Assembly (NCBI GenBank): GCA_016201505.1
Contig: JACQCQ010000008.1
Span: 1-42,835 of the forward strand
DNA: 42,835 nt
Reading direction: 5' to 3'
DNA from: Candidatus Sungiibacteriota bacterium
GTDB taxonomy: Bacteria; Patescibacteriota; Minisyncoccia; Sungbacterales; JACQCQ01
Positions 11,550-42,835 of this stretch are shown here, one piece after another (within the stretch, counting starts at the first letter, position 1; each line of letters starts with the position of its first letter). The position numbers and the translations under genes were made by a program. The notes beneath the pieces were generated by a model. That model was not told the origin of the DNA. It saw only the letters and a program-made list of their open reading frames with translations, and ran no database searches.

Positions 11550-13412
11550 TCAAGATCTCTTCAGCATTTTTAAAAACACGTCGGGCGGAATTTGAACACT
11601 CCCCATGCCAAGACCCGCCAGTTTTTTCTTGCCCTTTTTCTGTTTTTTCCAGAGCTTCATTTTTCTGGTTCTATCGCCGCCGTATAAATAGCCCGTTACG
11701 TCTTTTGACATAGCCGACAACGTCTCGCGCGCAATGACGCGGCCGGCAACCGTCGCTTGTATCGGTACGGCAAAAACCTGCGAAGGCAGAAGCGACTTTA
11801 ATTTTGCCACAATGCGTTTTCCTTCCTCATAGGCTTCGTCTTTCGTGATGACGACAGAAAATGCCCGCTCACGGCGTTCGGCAACTAAGATATCAAGCCG
11901 CACCAGATCCCCCGTTTCGTATCCCCCCAACTCGTAACCCATCGAGGCATAGCCGGAAGTCGCACTCTTTAGCCGGTCGTACAAATCAACAATGACTTCT
12001 TTTAGCGGCATCTCGTATTGGATGAGAATTCGCGCAGCGGAAAGGTAATTGGTTTCGACAAATCGGGCGCGTGTTGTCTCAAACAATTTTAAAATTCTGC
12101 CCTGATAGTCAGCGGGCGCAATAACCTCAAGCCGCACCCAAGGCTCGGCAATGGAAAGAATCTCACCTGCTTCGGGGATATCAGCGGCAGAGAAGACGGT
12201 CATCTCGCCGCCCTTTTTTAGCCTCACTTTATATGAAACGGAGGGCGTCGACACCAAAGTTTCAAGCCCGAACTCGCGCTTGACGCGTTCTGAAATAATT
12301 TCTAAATGCAGCATGCCTAAAAATCCAACCCGAAATCCGCGGCCCCAGGCTTCTGAGGCTTCAATTTCATAGGTGAGCGCGGCGTCATTTAGTTTTAATT
12401 TATTGAGTGCGTCTTGGAGTTTAAGAAAATCATCGGCCTCTGTCGGATACATCGAAGCAAACACGACGGGTTTTGGTTCTGCGTATCCGGGCAGCGGAGC
12501 GGCCAAAATATTTCCTTTTTCGACGATCGTGTCGCCAACGCGGATGCCGGTTTCTTTTAAGCCTGTCGCGATATAGCCGATTTCGCCCCCAGCCAATGAA
12601 TCTGCTGCTTGCATCTGGGGTTTAAAATAGCCGACTTCCAAAACTTCGGCGGCGATTTTTGTTTTGAGCATGATGATTGAGCTGGCTTTTTTGATACTTC
12701 CTGACATTACACGGACGTAGGCGATAACGCCTTTATACTGATCGAACTGCGAATCAAAAATTAAAGCCTTGAATCCTCCATTTGATTTTTTCGGCGGGGG
12801 AATACGGAGAATAATTTGTGCAAACAATTCATCAATGCCTTCGCCCGTTTTACCCGATACGCAAAGGACTGAACCTTCGGGGACCTCGAGGAGAGAGGCA
12901 ATTTCCGAAACTGCGCCTTCGATATCTGCGCCCAGCATGTCAATTTTATTTACGACCGGGATAATCGCGAGCCCCTCTTTTTTAGCCACATGCAAGTTAG
13001 CAATGGTTTGCGCTTGGATGCCCTGGGTCGCGTCCACCAGCAAGACGGCGCCTTCAACCGCAGCCAGCGCACGAGAAACCTCGTAGCCAAAATCAACATG
13101 CCCGGGAGTATCAATCAGATTCAGAATATATTCTGAATCTGAAAATTCTAAATTCAAAGCACTAGATTCTAAATTTTTTAGGATTTCGGATTTAGAGTTT
13201 CGGATTTCCGTATGATTTGGTCTCCAAATCATACGGACGGGCTGCATCTTAATCGTAATCCCCCGCTCACGCTCTAAATCCATTTGGTCCAAAACCTGCT
13301 CACGCATTTTGCGATCTTCAATCGTATGCGTTCGCTCAAGCAACCGATCCGCCAGAGTGCTTTTCCCATGGTCTATATGTGCGATAATTACAAAGTTTCT
13401 TATCTGGCTCAT
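11550..13412 (-). CDS. lepA: Elongation factor 4 (LepA) with an in-frame repeat-derived insertion
   Basis: IRNFVIIAHIDHGKSTLADR, ERERGITIK, DTPGHVDF, GFLGMLH, YGGD.TRK.KL. Confidence 0.96.
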   Translation of the reverse strand: MSQIRNFVIIAHIDHGKSTLADRLLERTHTIEDRKMREQVLDQMDLERERGITIKMQPVRMIWRPNHTEIRNSKSEILKNLESSALNLEFSDSEYILNLIDTPGHVDFGYEVSRALAAVEGAVLLVDATQGIQAQTIANLHVAKKEGLAIIPVVNKIDMLGADIEGAVSEIASLLEVPEGSVLCVSGKTGEGIDELFAQIILRIPPPKKSNGGFKALIFDSQFDQYKGVIAYVRVMSGSIKKASSIIMLKTKIAAEVLEVGYFKPQMQAADSLAGGEIGYIATGLKETGIRVGDTIVEKGNILAAPLPGYAEPKPVVFASMYPTEADDFLKLQDALNKLKLNDAALTYEIEASEAWGRGFRVGFLGMLHLEIISERVKREFGLETLVSTPSVSYKVRLKKGGEMTVFSAADIPEAGEILSIAEPWVRLEVIAPADYQGRILKLFETTRARFVETNYLSAARILIQYEMPLKEVIVDLYDRLKSATSGYASMGYELGGYETGDLVRLDILVAERRERAFSVVITKDEAYEEGKRIVAKLKSLLPSQVFAVPIQATVAGRVIARETLSAMSKDVTGYLYGGDRTRKMKLWKKQKKGKKKLAGLGMGSVQIPPDVFLKMLKRS

Positions 13413-23772: not shown

Positions 23773-24570
23773 TTATCTCAAATACCCGACTTGCTTTAAC
23801 CAATAGTCATTCTCCCACTCCCAAAGAGTTTTGGCGGCGAGAAAGGCCTTGGCGTCGCGGTAATAATAGGGAAACTCTTTTAGTTCGATATCCCCTTCCG
23901 GCCCATTAAACTCATGCTCCGCTTCCGGACAGGGCTTCACTGCATTTCGTCTGCCATTTCTGATTTTGGACCTTCCGCCTTTTTCGCGAAGCTTGGCGCC
24001 ACATTTTTTGCAGACCGAATGCTGATTGATACGCAAGATCCAGCGCGTTTCTACGGCCCGAGTAAGCCCCAGGGCTTTTTTCATCTGATACTCTTGCAAG
24101 GCCTGAATGTAGGCCGCAGTCTGCAAATTATATTCGGGATAAAATCCGGGCGAGGTTTTTATATCCAGCACGCCGAACTTCCCATCAATGATGCAAAGCG
24201 CATCGACAGTCCCCGCATAGCGGTGTGACCTGGACCAAATTTGTTTTTCAATATACTCGGGAATAAATTCCATCTTCCGTTCTTCGTTAAATTGCATAAG
24301 TGTTTCCAGGGCGGCGGCAAATTCGGGCGGGATCTCGACAGCTGCACCGGTTAAAAGTTTTTGGGCAGTTTCATGAATCAGCGAGCCTTCTTCGGCTGAT
24401 TTATTCTTTACCTCTTCGGCTGATTCATACGAGCCCATCTCGCGAAAAAATGAATCGAGCGCAGGCTTTGATTTAATATCCAAAATCTTGGTAACCCGCG
24501 GATACCAAACCCCGTCAATGTGATATCCCATCTCCTCTTTAAATTTATTGCCGTCAGAAAACCATCCCAT
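23773..24570 (-). CDS. PD-(D/E)XK nuclease superfamily protein
   Basis: YPRVT.IL, GS.IH, YAGTVD, LDIKTS, QTAAY; C-terminal CxxC..C..H. Confidence 0.8.
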   Translation of the reverse strand: MGWFSDGNKFKEEMGYHIDGVWYPRVTKILDIKSKPALDSFFREMGSYESAEEVKNKSAEEGSLIHETAQKLLTGAAVEIPPEFAAALETLMQFNEERKMEFIPEYIEKQIWSRSHRYAGTVDALCIIDGKFGVLDIKTSPGFYPEYNLQTAAYIQALQEYQMKKALGLTRAVETRWILRINQHSVCKKCGAKLREKGGRSKIRNGRRNAVKPCPEAEHEFNGPEGDIELKEFPYYYRDAKAFLAAKTLWEWENDYWLKQVGYLR

Positions 24571-24767
24571 TAGAAAATTAATCAGTTTAACTTTGGTAAT
24601 GCTTACACGTATATTCAGTATAGCAGTTTACTAACATATTCCTTATCATTTTAATTTTCTAACGGGATAATCCCGTTAGAAAATTAATCAGTTTAACTTT
24701 GGTAATGCTTACACGTATATTCAGTATAGCAGTTTACTAACATATTCCTTATCATTTTAATTTTCTA
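24566..24767. repeat. Tandem pair of CCC(A/G)TTAGA elements (101 bp plus a truncated copy)
   Basis: 24566-24666 and 24672-24767 are near-identical; TIR CCCRTTAGAAAATTAA / TTAATTTTCTAACGGG. Confidence 0.9.
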
Positions 24768-24918
24768 GAGTTCAAACGGACCTCGCTTATTCGTGTAGCT
24801 ACCTTTACTACCCCTATTGTGCTGGTTGAGGCGTTTCCGCAAGTCGGCAGTGAACCCGGTATAGAATCTGTTTGATTTTAAGCTTCTCAGTACATAGACA
24901 TAGAACATAGATAGGTCT

Positions 24919-29304: not shown

Positions 29305-29587
29305 ACCGGGTAGTATAAATTTGGCTATTTTTTTGATTATAGCAGAATTCTTTCAACATACGCTTTAATAGTCTAGCGCCCTGACTCGTTTTTAAATAGT
29401 GCCCTCTTCGCTTCGCATCTGATTCATTCAAATAGGCTTCGTAATGAATCAAATGCCAGGGCGCGTAAGGCTCGGTAGACTTATTCTTTTTGGAATTATG
29501 TTCCACGATTCTTTTTCTTAAATCTTTTGTGTAACCAACGTAGAGTCCATTCGCTCTATTTTGTAAAAGATAGATATAGTGGAACAT
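29297..29587 (-). CDS. GIY-YIG nuclease family protein
   Basis: YIYLL..LYVGYTKDLRKRIVEHN..ST..PW.LIHYEAY. Confidence 0.9.
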   Translation of the reverse strand: MFHYIYLLQNRANGLYVGYTKDLRKRIVEHNSKKNKSTEPYAPWHLIHYEAYLNESDAKRRGHYLKTSQGARLLKRMLKEFCYNQKNSQIYTTRYA

Positions 29588-36408: not shown

Positions 36409-36891
36409 TTATTCAAATGACTGTAATTGCTTTAACGCCTCGATGGTCGCTCTGGCATTGTTTAATTTGTTGGCTGATCGGGAGATAATTTTTGAAGTCA
36501 GATTCTGAATGCCGGCGAGATTGGCGACAGTTCGCACGGGACCGCCAGCGATAAGTCCGCGGCCTTCAGAGGCTGGGCGGAGCTTTACGATAGCGCTGCC
36601 ATATTTAGCCATGACGTCATGGGCGATACTGCCTGCTTTCGTAATTGGGACTTGCAGCATATTGCGCTTGGCGTTACTCGCCGCCTTATCGATTGAAAGA
36701 GCAACGTCAGCGCCTTTGCCAATCCCAACCGCAACGCGCCCCTTTCGGTTTCCCATCACAATAGTAGTACGAAAACTAAATCGGCGGCCGCCTTTTACGA
36801 CACGGGCAACACGCCGGATATCCAGCGTCTTCTGATCGTATTCGGACCGTTCTCTTGGCGGTCCTTGTCGTCTAAATTCACGTCGTGCCAT
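36409..36891 (-). CDS. rpsE: 30S ribosomal protein S5
   Basis: RVARVVKGGRRFSF. Confidence 0.96.
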   Translation of the reverse strand: MARREFRRQGPPRERSEYDQKTLDIRRVARVVKGGRRFSFRTTIVMGNRKGRVAVGIGKGADVALSIDKAASNAKRNMLQVPITKAGSIAHDVMAKYGSAIVKLRPASEGRGLIAGGPVRTVANLAGIQNLTSKIISRSANKLNNARATIEALKQLQSFE

Positions 36892-37083
36892 GCCTTTGAT
36901 GTCTAAATTTGTAAAGTCCCTGCTGTAGCAAATGTAGCCGCGGCCAAGAGCACCCAGCCAAGTTTTTCAGCGGCTGTATGCCCACCTTGAAATAGCAAGT
37001 TATCATAGCTGAAAAACTTGGGCGGGTAAAGGTTTTGTGACATAATTTTTTTCATAGTCAGGCAAAAATTCTGACAAAGCCCT
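36892..37083 (-). repeat. CCCGCCCAA hairpin element filling the rplR/rpsE junction
   Basis: GGGCTTTGTCAGAATT...CCCGCCCAAGTTTTTCAGC-loop-GCTGAAAAACTTGG. Confidence 0.85.
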
Positions 37084-37455
37084 TTAAAATGCTAGTCCAG
37101 CTTTACGCGCCGCATCGGCTAAGGCTTTAATCCGACCATGATATTTATATCCGCCGCGATCAAACACAACCGCTTTTATCTTTTTCTCCAAAGCTTTTTT
37201 AGCAATCTCGGCGCCGACATAGGTTGCTCGTTCGATCGGGGTTGGTTTCTTCTTTCCCCCTGCTCTTTTCATTGCGTCATGGGCTGAAACAATGGTTTTC
37301 CCTACCGCGTCATCAATAATTTGAGCATACATATGCTTCCCAGAGCGGAAAATTGAAAGACGGGGCAGAGTTCGGCTCACAGCGCGAAGTTTGAAGCGGG
37401 TCCTTCGCGCGCGCGTTTTTTGCTGTATTCGTTTTCGTGATGAAGTAAGTCCCAT
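37084..37455 (-). CDS. rplR: 50S ribosomal protein L18
   Basis: [25 protein letters not shown]. Confidence 0.96.
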
Positions 37456-37460
37456 ATGAG

Positions 37461-37588
37461 TTAAACCCTAAATCCGAAATTCAAAATACGAAACAAATTC
37501 AAAGCTCCAAACTCGAAACGTTTTTGATTTTGGACTTTTATGATTTTCATATTTGTTTAGGATTTAGGATTTCGTGCTTTGGGTTTTT
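37461..37588. repeat. Heptamer-repeat hairpin insert at the rplF/rplR junction
   Basis: AAACCCTAAATCCGAAAT ... TTTAGGATTTAGGATTTCG; same family as the rnpB and lepA inserts. Confidence 0.85.
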
Positions 37589-37589
37589 A

Positions 37590-38135
37590 CTACGCAGCGC
37601 CCGTTGAGGCTTTCTTACCGGCTTTGCGGCGGATCGTCTCGCCCAGGTAATGAATCCCTTTGCCTTTATAGGGCTCGGGCTTTTTAAGGCTCCTGATTTT
37701 GGCAGCCGTCTCGCCGACCGCATCTTTACTGAAACCAGAAACCGTAATCACGTTTTTTTCTACTTTAAATTGAATCCCGTCGGGCGCATCAAACATAACC
37801 GGATGCGAAAATCCAAGCGCGAAAACTAAATTCTTGCCTTCCAAATTTACTCGATATCCCACACCCTCCAACTCCAATTTTTTTTCAAATCCTTTCAAGA
37901 CTCCTTCAATCGAGTGAGCCAGAATCGCGCGCGTTAGGCCCCAGAAAGCCTGAGTCTTTTTAGTTTTTTGTGCCGGGTTAATGAGGATCTGATTGTCTTT
38001 CACTGCCACTTTAATTTCCGGCCGGATGTGTCGAACAATCTCGCCTTTGGGGCCTTTCATTTTTACTTCGTCACCAGAAAGCGTGACGGTGACACCTCCG
38101 GGGACTGAGATCGGTTGTTTTCCAATGCGGCTCAT
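37590..38135 (-). CDS. rplF: 50S ribosomal protein L6
   Basis: MSRIGK, PEPYKGKGI. Confidence 0.97.
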   Translation of the reverse strand: MSRIGKQPISVPGGVTVTLSGDEVKMKGPKGEIVRHIRPEIKVAVKDNQILINPAQKTKKTQAFWGLTRAILAHSIEGVLKGFEKKLELEGVGYRVNLEGKNLVFALGFSHPVMFDAPDGIQFKVEKNVITVSGFSKDAVGETAAKIRSLKKPEPYKGKGIHYLGETIRRKAGKKASTGAA

Positions 38136-38526
38136 GCCAATTTTGTTGAAATTATTGAGTAAGGATGCCCGAACGAAAAGAATTGCGCTACAAAACTGAG
38201 CACCCGCCCAAGTTTTTCAACTGATGTGCATACCATTAATTTCGTATTTCTTGTTCGCATTTTCATTTCTTGATTCATAGTCTTGAAAAATTTGGGCGGG
38301 TAAAGGTTTTGTTGCATCATTTTTTTCATAGTCATTCAAAAATTCTGACAAAGCCCTTACCCCGCCCCAATCTAAACGACGTTCGACCGAACCATCAAGA
38401 TTATGAGCCGTCAGACGGCTTCGCCTTCCGTTATCATTTACCCCATCGTTCATGGTTGAGATTGGGGCGGGGTAAGGTTTTGGTATAAAATTTTGTTCGC
38501 TTCGCTCCATAATTCTAACAAAGCCC
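38136..38526 (-). repeat. Two tandem CCCGCCC(C)AA hairpin elements at the rpsH/rplF junction
   Basis: TAAGGGCTTTGT occurs at both about 38529 and 38359; two GC stems. Confidence 0.85.
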
Positions 38527-38925
38527 TTACCAAATTTCTGCTATAATTTCTCCGCCTAATTTTTTCTTTTTGGCTTCATCATTTGAGAGAACCCCGGCGG
38601 AAGTTGAAATCACCGCGATGCCATGGCCGTACTTTACCGGCCTAATTTCAGAGGCTTTGACATAGAGGCGGCGCGAGGGTTTTGAGATTCTGCGTCCTCC
38701 AGCGAATGCCGGAGTCCCATCTTTATACTTCAGTGATATCTCCATGAACTTTCGCGCTTTCTTTCCCTTCTTTTCAATGCCGGCAATATAGCCTTTCCGC
38801 TCTAAGACCTTGGCAATGGATTCTTTTACATTGGAATGCGGAACAACCACCGCCTCTTTCTTGGCCCGGTAGCCATTCTGTATTCGTATGATCATATCCC
38901 CGATGGGATCAGTTATGACTGACAT
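38527..38925 (-). CDS. rpsH: 30S ribosomal protein S8
   Basis: DPIGDMIIRI.N, ISKPSRR.Y, GGEII. Confidence 0.97.
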   Translation of the reverse strand: MSVITDPIGDMIIRIQNGYRAKKEAVVVPHSNVKESIAKVLERKGYIAGIEKKGKKARKFMEISLKYKDGTPAFAGGRRISKPSRRLYVKASEIRPVKYGHGIAVISTSAGVLSNDEAKKKKLGGEIIAEIW

Positions 38926-39157
38926 ATGCCAGTGCTCTCTAAATTTTAGAGTGATTTAACGAATAAAATTTAGTTGAGTCACTGAGCACCCCGCCCCAAT
39001 CTAAACGACGTCCAGCCGAACTGTCGGGGCTGTAAGCCGCCAGGCGGCTTCGCTGTAGATTGTCTGTGGTTTGGTAATTCATGGTTGAGATTGGGGCGGG
39101 GGAAGGTTTTGGCATAAATTTTGTTCGCTGTCGTGCTCCATAATTTAGACCAAGCCC
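38926..39157 (-). repeat. CCCGCCCCAA hairpin element at the rpsN/rpsH junction
   Basis: Homologous to 38357-38526. Confidence 0.85.
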
Positions 39158-39343
39158 TTACCAGGAAGATTTTTTAACTCCGGGAATTTCGCCGCGATTT
39201 GCGAGTTCCCGAAAACAAATCCGGCATAAATCAAAATCGCGCATATAGCCGTGCTTCCGTCCGCAGCGGAAACAGCGCCTGACTTTGCGGGATGAAAATT
39301 TCGGCTTCTTTTTGGACCTGGCGATAACTGAAGTTTTTGCCAT
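39158..39343 (-). CDS. rpsN: 30S ribosomal protein S14 (Zn-binding type Z)
   Basis: [24 protein letters not shown]. Confidence 0.96.
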
Positions 39344-39352
39344 CTTTTTGCT

Positions 39353-39413
39353 TATCGACTACTGACCACGGACTACCGCACAACTGTATGCCGTAGTCTG
39401 TAGTCAGTAGATA
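39353..39413. repeat. Heptamer hairpin at the rplE/rpsN junction
   Basis: CTACTGACCACGGACTAC ... GTAGTCTGTAGTCAGTAG. Confidence 0.75.
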
Positions 39414-39416
39414 CAG

Positions 39417-39953
39417 TTATGTCTGAATGGGAAAGCCTAAACTGCGAAGGAGCGACATGCCTTCTTCTTTTGTTCTGGCAGTTGTGACAATTGTAACTTC
39501 CAAGCCAAAAATAAATCGGACGTCTTCACCGATCATTTCCGGAAAAACAATATGCTCTTTGACGCCAATCGTCAAGTTGCCGCGGCCGTCAAAGGCCGTT
39601 GCCGGAATACCCTTAAAATCGCGTGTTCGGGGAAGAGCAATACCCACCAGTCTATCCAAAAATTCATACATGCGTGCCCCGCGTAGCGTCACCGAGTAGC
39701 CGATGATCTGCCCCAGGCGCGTCTTAAATGAGGCGATGGCCTTTTTAGCCCGGCGCGGTACCGCGTGCTGCCCCGTAATGGCGGACAAGGATTTTTGTAC
39801 AATCTCACGCTGCTTTTCATCGACGATACGGCCCACGCCGGAGTTTACAACTACTTTTATAATTTTCGGCACCGCCAAAATATTCGAGTATTCGAACTCT
39901 TTTTTTAGTGCCGGTATGGCTTCCTTTTGGTATCGTTCTTTTATAACTGACAT
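39417..39953 (-). CDS. rplE: 50S ribosomal protein L5
   Basis: VTLRG.RMYEFLDRL, RDFKG, FDGRGN. Confidence 0.97.
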   Translation of the reverse strand: MSVIKERYQKEAIPALKKEFEYSNILAVPKIIKVVVNSGVGRIVDEKQREIVQKSLSAITGQHAVPRRAKKAIASFKTRLGQIIGYSVTLRGARMYEFLDRLVGIALPRTRDFKGIPATAFDGRGNLTIGVKEHIVFPEMIGEDVRFIFGLEVTIVTTARTKEEGMSLLRSLGFPIQT

Positions 39954-40336
39954 GTCAGTGTGCTTAAAATTATTGAGTGAGTGAAGCGAACGAAAAGAAT
40001 TTCGCTACAAAAGTGAGCACCCCGCCCAAGTTTTTCAGCGGCCGTATGCTCACATTGAAACAGCACATCATCATGGCTGAAAAATTTGGGCGGGTAAAGG
40101 TTTGGTGTGCCGCATGAGGCGCAAACGACCATAGCGGCCGAGGCGGAAAATGAGGCAGGAATCTCAACAACCTCACCGCGTTTTCCTTCCTGCCGCGGGC
40201 GGATATGCTTTTTCTTTATATTGATGCCTTCGGCCAGCAGTCTCGCCTCCTTCGGCCAGACATGCAAAACCTTCGCGGTTTTGCCGCGATCTTTGCCGGC
40301 CATGATCTGAATCGTGTCGCCCTTTTTGATTTTCAT
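39941..40336 (-). CDS. rplX: 50S ribosomal protein L24, C-terminus replaced by repeat sequence from about 40103
   Basis: MKIKKGD..AGKDRGK; after CASCG the frame reads into the repeat (NLYPPKFF). Confidence 0.85.
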   Translation of the reverse strand: MKIKKGDTIQIMAGKDRGKTAKVLHVWPKEARLLAEGINIKKKHIRPRQEGKRGEVVEIPASFSASAAMVVCASCGTPNLYPPKFFSHDDVLFQCEHTAAEKLGRGAHFCSEILFVRFTHSIILSTLTCQL

Positions 40337-40473
40337 GCCAATTTTGTCGAAATTATTGAGTGAGTGAAGCGAACGAAAAGAATTTCGCTACAAAAGTGAG
40401 CACCCCGCCCAAGTTTTTCAGCGGCCGTATGCTCACATTGAAACAGCACATCATCATGGCTGAAAAATTTGGG
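40337..40473 (-). repeat. CCCGCCCAA element (partial), identical to 42699-42835
   Basis: 137-nt identity by eye. Confidence 0.9.
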
Positions 40474-40690
40474 CTTTGCGGCGATAGGAATTTCTCTGCC
40501 GGACAATCACCGCGCGGACCACATCTTTTTTCTTTACCTGCTTTCTGGGTTCTGCAATTTTAACCGAAGCCACGATAATATCCCCCAGCTGGGCGTATCG
40601 CCGTCTCGTTCCGCCCAGCACTTTAATGACCTGGAGCAGTTTGGCTCCAGAATTATCGGCGACTTGTAACATGGATCGCGGCTGAATCAT
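40454..40690 (-). pseudogene. rplN: 50S ribosomal protein L14, truncated at a repeat (likely assembly artefact)
   Basis: [19 protein letters not shown]; lacks the C-terminal ~50 aa (IRFD..RIFGPV). Confidence 0.85.
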
Positions 40691-40831
40691 ACCTAGTGTT
40701 ATAACTTCGGAAGGCCACTTGAGGCGACCAGCTGAAACCGATAGTTATCCTTTCGACTTTTTATCTTTATTCTGTACGTATTCTTTTCCATGATTGATAT
40801 TCTGCATCCGAAGTTATAACGACCGGGCATA
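40688..40831 (-). repeat. 144-bp TATG-flanked inverted-repeat element at the rpsQ/rplN junction
   Basis: GTTATAACTTCGGA / TCCGAAGTTATAAC; homologous to 41300-41443. Confidence 0.9.
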
Positions 40832-40834
40832 TAA

Positions 40835-41302: not shown

Positions 41303-41443
41303 ACCCGGTGTTACAATTTCGGAAGGTCGCTCGGTGCGACCACCTGAAACCGATGGTTATCCTTTCGACTTTTTATCTTTATTCTGTGCGTATTCTTTTC
41401 CATGATTGATATTCTGCATCCGAAGTTATAACGACCGGGCATA
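41300..41443 (-). repeat. 144-bp TATG-flanked inverted-repeat element at the rplP/rpmC junction
   Basis: TATGCCCGGTCGTTATAACTTCGGA ... TCCGAAATTGTAACACCGGGTATG. Confidence 0.9.
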
Positions 41444-41839: not shown

Positions 41840-41841
41840 AA

Positions 41842-42027
41842 TTATTCGCCATTCGTCGTTTGAAAATCGTTCACTCGCCCCGGCGCGGCTCGCTCACTCA
41901 CGTCCGCGCTCGCTCTTTTGCCTCGCAAAATCCAAGCCCGCGAGCACTCCCAAGTGTTTTCAAACAAGAATGTCTCACCGGAGGCTTTCTGAATGTAGCC
42001 CTTCGGGCTTTGATTCACATTAATCAT
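41842..42027 (-). other. Hairpin insert and 61-codon bridging ORF at the rpsC/rplP junction
   Basis: GTTTGAAAA...TTTTCAAAC stem with GCTCGCTC repeats; the ORF overlaps the rpsC stop and ends 2 nt before rplP. Confidence 0.6.
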
Positions 42028-42698
42028 ACATTTTTCTTTTCTTCAAAAATCTGGCCCTTATAAATCCAGACTTTGATGCCAATGACGCCGTAGGTGGTAT
42101 ACGCCTCTTTTTGAGCATAATCAATATGAGCACGCAGCGTCTGCAAGGGGATACGCCCCTTTTTAATCCATTCATAGCGAGCCATTTCCGAACCATCAAG
42201 CCGCCCCGAGATGGCAATTTTTACGCCTTCCACACCTTTGGACTGGATTACTTTTTCGGAGGTTTGTTTTAGAACGCGACGAAAAGGCAGACGTTTTTCA
42301 AGATCATCGGCGATCATCTGACCGACAATTGCCGCATGCGCTTCAGGCGTTTTTACCTCCTCGACGGTAAGTTTTAAGTCGCGCTTGTCAGCGGCCGCAT
42401 TTTTATTTATGCCGCTAATTTTTTTAGCAATTTCTTGTTTTAATTTTTCAGCCCACTCTCCCCCGCGGCCGATCAAAATTCCGGGACGTGAAGTCCGGAT
42501 GATGATATTCATGGTCGTGGGCGACCGTTCAATTTCGATGGCATCGATGTGTGCCGCTCTTAATTTTTTCCGCAGCCACTCGCGAACAACCGTGTCTTCG
42601 CGTAAATAATCTTTATATTTTTTTTCATTAAACCAGCGCGACTTCCAGGTCGTGTTAATGCCTAATCTGAAAATGTAGGGGTGGACTCGGTGGGTCAT
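42024..42698 (-). CDS. rpsC: 30S ribosomal protein S3
   Basis: VHPYIFRLG..W.SRWF, RPGILIGRGG, GRIPLQTLR, GIKVWI. Confidence 0.97.
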   Translation of the reverse strand: MTHRVHPYIFRLGINTTWKSRWFNEKKYKDYLREDTVVREWLRKKLRAAHIDAIEIERSPTTMNIIIRTSRPGILIGRGGEWAEKLKQEIAKKISGINKNAAADKRDLKLTVEEVKTPEAHAAIVGQMIADDLEKRLPFRRVLKQTSEKVIQSKGVEGVKIAISGRLDGSEMARYEWIKKGRIPLQTLRAHIDYAQKEAYTTYGVIGIKVWIYKGQIFEEKKNV

Positions 42699-42835
42699 GC
42701 CAATTTTGTCGAAATTATTGAGTGAGTGAAGCGAACGAAAAGAATTTCGCTACAAAAGTGAGCACCCCGCCCAAGTTTTTCAGCGGCCGTATGCTCACAT
42801 TGAAACAGCACATCATCATGGCTGAAAAATTTGGG
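42699..42835 (-). repeat. CCCGCCCAA element upstream of rpsC (runs off the window)
   Basis: Ends ...CGACAAAATTGGC directly before the rpsC ATG. Confidence 0.9.

Follow-up and report, generated by a model that had tools for sequence, protein, structure and literature searches.

The contig analysed here in full (42,835 nucleotides; hereafter the window, contig C12) belongs to a 20-contig, 0.82-Mb genome of Candidatus Sungiibacteriota bacterium (G000), and the public sequencing runs that match it are groundwater metagenomes. Its minus strand carries a ribosomal-protein operon (34.6-42.8 kb) with the genes S3, L16, L29, S17, L14, L24, L5, S14, S8, L6, L18, S5, L15 and SecY, none of them with a Shine-Dalgarno sequence, and within this operon lie repeat units that run from the stop codon of one gene to the start codon of the next. 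We interpret these units as composite, gene-less selfish DNA resembling miniature inverted-repeat transposable elements (MITEs), settled in short stop-to-start spacers and made up of nested relics of hairpin cassettes encoding a GIY-YIG nuclease, a reading to which we assign a probability of about 0.72. The units had been noticed in a first-pass annotation made from the letters of the sequence, the observation of which was confirmed and the interpretation of which proved mostly right. All units of the window are on the minus strand, and their sequences are given below in the minus-strand (mRNA) sense.

Each unit consists of three adjacent hairpins, namely a 5' arm, a variable central hairpin and a 3' arm. 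The 5' arm (~60 nt) begins with the stop codon of the upstream gene (TAA, then GGGCTT) and ends in AAACCTTTA, and AAAACCTT sits just before the central stem. The central hairpin is formed by inverted repeats beginning CCC and ending GGG, with stems of 15-20 bp and an ATG ~20 nt into the loop. The 3' arm (~70 nt) begins GTGCTCA and ends in ..TTGGC-ATG, the ATG being the start of the next gene. Two unit types, A and B, are told apart by the central stem. Among 29 paired units the centre measured 95-111 nt in 22 and 273-298 nt in three, one was a tandem of 268 nt and three were shorter (39, 61 and 73 nt). Identical arm types occur around centres of the A, B and CCCCGTTAGA types, and one gene junction holds different centres across genomes, which bears out the earlier description of a conserved stem with an interchangeable loop.

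The placement of the units from stop to start, likewise proposed at first sight, was confirmed at the loci that were fetched. All 41 5' arms begin on a stop codon (TAA 36, TGA 4, TAG 1), at least 60 open in-frame codons lie upstream of 30 of them, 28 of the 31 3' arms end exactly in ATG and 30 of the 31 lead into an open reading frame (ORF) of at least 37 codons. The genes downstream of the 3' arms include S5, SecY, S13, S11, L2, S3, L6, NusA, L36, L33, S4, S7 and SSB. Copies were also expected outside the operon, and in G000 further units were indeed present at L23/L2 (contig C16), at S11/S4 (C18), upstream of nusA (C11) and upstream of mraZ (C5), together with a partial unit (centre and 3' arm) at secE/nusG on C5. 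Eight of the 11 sites in G000 lie between ribosomal-protein genes, and the other three are 5' of nusA, 5' of mraZ and at secE/nusG. The recurrence of this architecture across the contigs of G000 and across the order is far beyond chance.

The link to a nuclease is provided by long relatives of the units, which have the same ends and carry a GIY-YIG ORF, a candidate mobilising enzyme. The copy upstream of nusA has the same arms, an A-type repeat (CCCGCCCAAATTTTT) and a 298-nt loop with an ORF of 85 aa, and long forms with other repeats were found in the related genomes G026 (293 nt) and G044 (273 nt). The loop ORFs of G000, G026 and G044 match the Pfam GIY-YIG family above threshold (E 3.6e-12, 7.2e-14 and 2.4e-11, respectively); they are 78-85 aa long and match PF01541 over nearly their whole length, that is, they are single-domain GIY-YIG proteins. 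A fourth long form with a similar ORF, in G014, is known by translation alone. The first-pass suggestion that the variable loop is the remnant of a cargo gene such as a nuclease, to be sought in long versions with an ORF in the loop, is supported by these four, and the ATG in the loop of the short units is located where the start codon of the nuclease lies in the long form. Searches with the loop nuclease gave sub-threshold matches only in NCBIfam and no relative above threshold in PDB, and a scan of genome_contigs placed its close relatives at only four loci. One of these is in a metagenome-assembled genome labelled Saccharibacteria (L084, 630-1040), where an A-type GIY-YIG cassette with the same CCCGCCCAA repeats is flanked by diverged arm-like hairpins, the 3' hairpin being separated from the ATG by a GGAGG Shine-Dalgarno sequence.

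The genome G000 as a whole yielded 16 PF01541 matches, one of them in an open frame of 441 aa and the others in small ORFs. Many of these small GIY-YIG ORFs lie within inverted repeats of their own, which start with CCC, and several adjoin tRNA genes. Inside the window itself there are two small GIY-YIG genes on the minus strand, at 29384-29581 and at 24744-24908, and each is flanked by a separate set of inverted repeats. The gene at 24744-24908 has an internal TAG and is followed by a tandem of two 98-nt copies (24564-24767), with repeats of the TCTAACGGGAT type at its boundaries.

The distribution of the arms is that of a repeat family. A covariance model of the 5' arm matched 39 of the 62 genomes of the order, G000 included, at E up to 1e-4 (4/4, 5/6, 19/36, 0/3 and 10/12 by family), with 0-54 copies per genome and 54, 48 and 40 copies in three genomes searched singly. 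In 150 other genomes across the phylum no match was obtained at E up to 1e-5 under stricter filters, with 35 candidates scored per genome. The model is narrow, since the diverged armed copy in L084 escapes it.

Comparison of the same junctions among related genomes points to mobility. Junctions filled in G000 are empty in G001, G003 or G006 and others are filled there by different elements, and occupancy in G001, G002 and G003 differs from that in G000. G006 has no arm matches; its operon genes are separated by 4-15 nt or overlap, and its short spacers have no Shine-Dalgarno sequence. It has two solo hairpins of the middle type that are flanked by direct repeats, ATGAGT at S8/L6 and ATGAG at L29/S17; the stop codon is preserved in the upstream copy of the repeat and the start codon in the downstream one. 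The centres inside arms show only AT..AT or no direct repeat. One arm pair in G044 has no centre and its junction reads ..CCTT-ATG-CC.., and further hairpins are nested inside the arms in G001, G044 and G014. The differences between junctions, the direct repeats at ATG, the empty arm pair and the nesting fit repeated insertion at ATG triplets, and ATG appears to be the triplet where the cassettes insert. Of the features by which MITEs are recognised, terminal inverted repeats, many copies and differing presence or absence at the same sites (G000, G001, G003, G006) are found in these units.

We then considered how the units fold. Arms were collected from the related genomes by BLAST (18 of 61 genomes with a match) and nhmmer and were aligned with MAFFT. 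RNAalifold gave one long hairpin for the 5' arm (34 sequences), in which the basal helix pairs UAAAGG, including the stop codon, with CCUUUA; changes on both sides were seen in 13 of 20 pairs, and 93.7% of cells were paired against 79.5% in shuffles (0 of 500 shuffles as high; slid controls 33-59%). For the 3' arm (23 sequences) the basal helix joins GUGCU to GGCAU, whose final AU comes from the start codon; 12 of 22 pairs were compensatory, and paired cells amounted to 95.2% against 80.9% in shuffles (0 of 500 as high; slid controls 31-41%). When 46 matches of the 5' arm were aligned by fitting them to the model, 15 of 20 pairs were compensatory, such an alignment being biased towards structure. 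The covariation that had been named as a check is thus present in both arms.

The first-pass annotation had also proposed that the outer ends of a unit pair with each other and so bring the stop and start together. In G000 such pairing is possible, since both arms are related palindromes, yet the fold that is conserved is a different one: the minimum-energy structure consisted of three separate hairpins in 22 of 25 complete units, the three exceptions with arm paired to arm were all from G000, and the arm-to-arm duplex was better than two hairpins in one unit of the 25. Two whole units fold as three abutting hairpins with z of -3.7 and -9.0, and their basal helices abut with 0-1 nt between them. 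Either fold, self-folded arms or arm duplex, would bring the stop and start codons close. An Rfam scan of 20000-42835 at E up to 1 returned only mir-266 and sR58, at chance level. Between 36000 and 42835 three promoter-like sites were found against 7.1 expected and 16 terminator-like sites where 9.7 were expected; some of the latter are GGGCGGGGTGCTCA-TTTT junctions, and these were not read as terminators.

From these observations a course of events can be proposed. The middle hairpin would be a miniature of a ~0.3-kb cassette, whose sole gene encodes the 78-85 aa GIY-YIG nuclease within the same inverted repeats; it is flanked by the two related, palindromic and order-specific arms. Cassettes inserting at ATG triplets would pile up and nest at start codons. 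By analogy with the Ssn enzymes discussed below, the nuclease may cut single-stranded DNA that forms hairpins and may thereby mobilise full and miniature copies in trans. Those insertions that survive in essential operons devoid of Shine-Dalgarno sequences would be the ones that keep the stop codon, restore the ATG and fold compactly in the mRNA. The mechanism of insertion, the role of the nuclease and the role of the fold in translation are all inferred.

Several points weigh against this reading. No transposition, cleavage or excision has been observed, and a GIY-YIG hydrolase alone cannot join DNA. Thirteen of the ~14 small GIY-YIG genes of G000 have no arms, and the nuclease therefore does not need them. 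The middle hairpin inside arms lacks the 5-6-bp direct repeat of the solo copies, so simple serial insertion does not account for the order in which left arm, centre and right arm always occur. The window units that are 94-100% identical could be attributed equally to gene conversion or to transposition, and, together with the constant order of parts, they could reflect movement of whole units or gene conversion. Unit A1 on its own folds no better than its shuffles (z -1.2). Compensatory change is as expected of a selected RNA structure as of a DNA palindrome, and, once two near-invariant G-U pairs at the foot of the 3' arm are set aside, wobble pairs did not exceed A-C mismatches (G-U against A-C cells: 3' arm 5 vs 12, 5' arm 7 vs 7), so that either RNA or DNA may be the folding molecule.

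These last points lead to the alternative that fares best, although we hold it to be somewhat unlikely, in which the arms or the whole unit are an mRNA structure selected by the host and the nuclease is an occasional passenger. Some 230 nt would be folded away, which would set the stop codon next to the following start codon and allow terminating ribosomes to re-initiate (a shunt); or else the hairpins would be sites of processing into near-leaderless mRNAs. The abutting basal helices contain both the stop codon and the AU of the AUG, compensatory change is strong and all units are oriented with transcription. The absence of Shine-Dalgarno sequences and the tiny or overlapping empty spacers imply coupled translation, which an insert of 230 nt would otherwise break, and at its base the 3' arm has two near-invariant G-U pairs that exist on the sense strand only. 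However, related genomes manage without units at the same junctions, 11 of the 41 5' arms follow no gene, some loops are inverted and no Rfam family was matched. The spread of 0-54 copies among genomes of a single order is also the behaviour of a repeat family.

A further possibility, which goes beyond MITE-like relics and which we regard as unlikely, is that the ~0.3-kb cassette is an autonomous transposon of a new class, working on hairpin-forming single-stranded DNA and landing on start codons, the order-specific wrapper of three hairpins being an adaptation that hides the 230-nt insert from translation. Such a wrapper would provide the stop codon and restore the AUG, and ribosomes that terminate at the first hairpin's foot would re-initiate at that of the third, in a bacterial counterpart of ribosome shunting.

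The closest published parallel is offered by the Ssn enzymes, single-domain GIY-YIG proteins of ~94 aa that cut single-stranded DNA next to hairpin repeats (NTS/SRM) flanking their genes (Chenal et al. 2025, PMC11893778). In that report, small single-domain GIY-YIG proteins (~80-95 aa) are described as flanked by hairpin repeats that are also present in many gene-less intergenic copies, the NTS-ssnA-NTS arrangement is likened by its authors to an insertion sequence, and REP/BIME with RAYT as well as IS200/IS605 are named in the discussion. The system described here differs in that the gene is enclosed by repeats that pair with one another, and in that the units, wrapped in two additional hairpins, extend exactly from a stop codon to a start codon. 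It might nevertheless be proposed that the hairpins are immobile recognition sites of a domesticated nuclease of the Ssn type, which would control DNA uptake or recombination near conserved genes as with the NTS/SRM of Neisseria. The arrangement hairpin-gene-hairpin around an ~85 aa single-domain GIY-YIG protein, with its many gene-less intergenic copies as in NTS-ssnA-NTS, speaks for this proposal (PMC11893778). We consider it improbable, since the published degenerate SRM pattern had four matches in G000 against a mean of 4.6 in five shuffles, none of them in the units, and none of 15 small GIY-YIG genes had one within 300 nt. Exact placement from stop to start and direct repeats at start codons point instead to insertion events, and the genome holds ~14 different nuclease genes, each with its own repeats.

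The remaining alternative starts from the reading frames that the first-pass annotation took to be conserved, NLYPPKFF...EKLG and RSRL...RRLDWGGV. In the long A copy this frame is that of the GIY-YIG nuclease. In the miniature A copies the similarity is confined to the stems, the frame is stopped in one of seven and the conserved ATG stands in different frames. Among B copies the differences favour no codon position (8/9/13, 9/9/10 and 9/15/8), copy B3 has a frame-shifting indel, and both in G001 and in the mraZ copy the inner part of the B loop has the reverse orientation with respect to the arms, which fits behaviour at the level of DNA rather than of a sense-strand RNA or a protein. To judge from these patterns, the peptide motifs recur as translations of conserved nucleotides and do not mark a gene, so the claim of a conserved protein frame is not supported. 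That the units encode small proteins is accordingly very improbable, even though the frame is open in six of seven A-type centres and ORFs of 50-97 codons span several units, given the even codon-position differences and the indel among B copies, A-type loops that share no residues beyond the stems, the inverted loops and a frame in the long copy that is simply that of the GIY-YIG gene.

As putative MITE-like relics, the units can be compared with other known repeats. The Correia/NEMIS elements of Neisseria are bacterial MITEs co-transcribed inside operons; like the units they are short and gene-less, have terminal inverted repeats and many copies, vary in presence between relatives and are transcribed with their neighbours. 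Here, however, the gene-carrying relative encodes only a GIY-YIG nuclease and no known transposase, and the exact placement between stop and start and the nested build of three hairpins set the units apart. REP/BIME elements resemble them as mosaics of palindromic units between operon genes, and IS200/IS605 elements in having two similar hairpins in direct orientation at the ends and a fixed short sequence before the left end. The difference from both is that no HUH/Y1 transposase accompanies the units, the enzyme found is a hydrolase without known strand transfer and there is no evidence for a single-strand circle. The seg genes of phage T4 are free-standing GIY-YIG homing endonuclease genes between conserved phage genes, and share with the long forms a small GIY-YIG gene in a spacer between conserved co-transcribed genes; homing endonucleases, in contrast, have an added DNA-binding domain and one cognate site, whereas here there are many sites, miniatures and enclosing repeats. 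In rRNA genes of the Candidate Phyla Radiation (CPR), GIY-YIG genes occur in non-intron insertions and many uncharacterised ORF-less insertions are shorter than 200 bp (PMC11270868), a likeness both in the GIY-YIG-encoding and in the short ORF-less inserts. The paper is confined to rRNA genes, and the passages of it that were considered mention neither inverted repeats nor placement at start codons nor units of three hairpins (PMC11270868). No description of stop-to-start three-hairpin units was found among the literature listings and passages searched; the supplements of PMC11893778 may list relatives.

The individual units of the window are as follows, all on the minus strand, with the scores of the 5'-arm model (R1) and the 3'-arm model (R2) in bits; the sequence of all seven stretches listed in the first-pass annotation was present as described there. 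Unit A1 fills the L18/S5 spacer (36889..37086; R1 70.5, R2 54.8), with a 3' arm at 36889-36953 ending in the ATG of S5, a centre of 73 nt at 36954-37026 and a 5' arm at 37027-37086 beginning with the TAA of L18. Unit A2 lies upstream of L6 (38133..38360; R1 64.7, R2 70.5), with a 3' arm at 38133-38203 ending in the L6 ATG, a centre of 97 nt at 38204-38300 and a 5' arm at 38301-38360. The half-unit B1 follows S8 (38361..38530; R1 64.4); its 5' arm (38472-38530) begins with the TAA of S8 and is followed by a B-type centre (38361-38471) with no 3' arm of its own, so that the S8/L6 junction is a tandem of B1 (5' arm and centre) with the complete A2 directly downstream. Unit B2, in the S14/S8 spacer (38925..39161; R1 52.5, R2 70.7), is 77% identical to B1 and consists of a 3' arm at 38925-38989, a centre at 38990-39100 and a 5' arm at 39101-39161. 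By stem, 36892-37083 and 38136-38345 are diverged A-type copies (CCCGCCCAA..TTGGGCGGG), and 38346-38526 and 38926-39157 are of the B type (CCCCGCCCCAATCT..AGATTGGGGCGGGG).

Three A-type units are incomplete. Upstream of L5, A3 (39951..40107; R2 50.4) has a 3' arm, a centre and a stub of the 5' arm; upstream of L24, A4 (40334..40473; R2 83.5) has a 3' arm and most of the centre; upstream of S3, A5 (42696..42835) has a 3' arm and part of the centre and is stopped by the end of the contig. The remainder of A5, including the 5' arm after L22, was recovered on C16:1-137, the start of which overlaps the window by 73 nt and scores 51 bits with R1 at C16:78-137. Over 141 nt the stretches 40333-40473 and 42695-42835 match each other at 100% identity, and 39950-40090 shares 94% identity with both.

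The two internal truncations coincide with apparently truncated genes. Only positions 1-73 of the 122 of Pfam L14 are present in the assembly, A4 being fused at 40473/40474 to codon 73 of L14, and L24 runs into A3 after its CxxC motif, A3 being fused to the interior of L24 at 40107/40108. Independent Logan contigs from four runs of one study (X1-X4) disagree with the window at both joins. At 40474 the contigs of X1, X2 and X4 continue in the minus-strand reading ..RRK-DGSYIRFDEN, which we take to be the normal continuation of L14 from the consensus of that protein, and the contig of X3 continues into a normal 5' arm. At 40107/40108 one Logan contig continues into a normal 5' arm and another into more L24 (..CG-KPTRVGTKT). 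Among the Logan pieces listed, beyond which there were 20 more, none bridges either join. Both truncations and the adjacent incomplete units are most likely mis-joins caused by the three near-identical units; a minority deletion variant is a possible alternative. A real effect of the element on L14 and L24 was rejected on the normal continuations of the Logan contigs. The sequence of the incomplete units reported earlier at 39954-40103 and 40337-40473 therefore stands, but the points at which they are cut are most probably products of mis-assembly.

If the units are indeed such relics, the most conserved and highest-expressed operons of very small bacteria would be a preferred home of minimal selfish elements, which would be tolerated there because the stop and start codons of the neighbouring genes are preserved. 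An 85-aa nuclease paired with hairpins that are likely its DNA substrate would also be relevant to tools for single-stranded DNA in the wake of the work on Ssn, and the units would provide a natural test of translational coupling across a long structured spacer without a Shine-Dalgarno sequence. In practice, metagenome assemblies are broken and wrongly joined at identical units within the very marker genes on which phylogeny and completeness estimates rely, as with the apparently false truncations of L14 and L24 here.

Besides these units, nearly every operon spacer longer than 20 nt is a hairpin-type repeat. A different repeat of ~140 nt, with terminal inverted repeats TATAACTTCGGA.. / ..TCCGAAGTTATA, fills the S17/L14 and L16/L29 spacers in two copies that are 92% identical (40691-40834 and 41303-41425). 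The L6/L18 spacer is filled by an AT-rich palindromic element of the TAAATCCTAAA type (37456-37589), for which BLAST gave ~20 relatives spread over six other contigs as well as short repeats resembling it at 13176, 18231 and 18445 in the window. Two more spacer-filling repeats were seen at 39344-39416 (L5/S14) and 41840-42023 (S3/L16), the first with weak relatives on several contigs.

Two observations concern arms elsewhere in the genome. Upstream of the nusA unit (C11:70215-70260) a promoter-like TTGACA-17-TATAGT is followed by a 14-codon ORF (ATG..CAT) that ends exactly on the TAA opening the 5' arm. This is possibly a short leader ORF, and it has no counterpart at the mraZ copy. On C16 (10462-10508) the EF-G gene contains an in-frame hairpin resembling the 3' arm (39.7 bits), which immediately precedes the ..YRINIIDTPGH motif and adds residues to the G domain.

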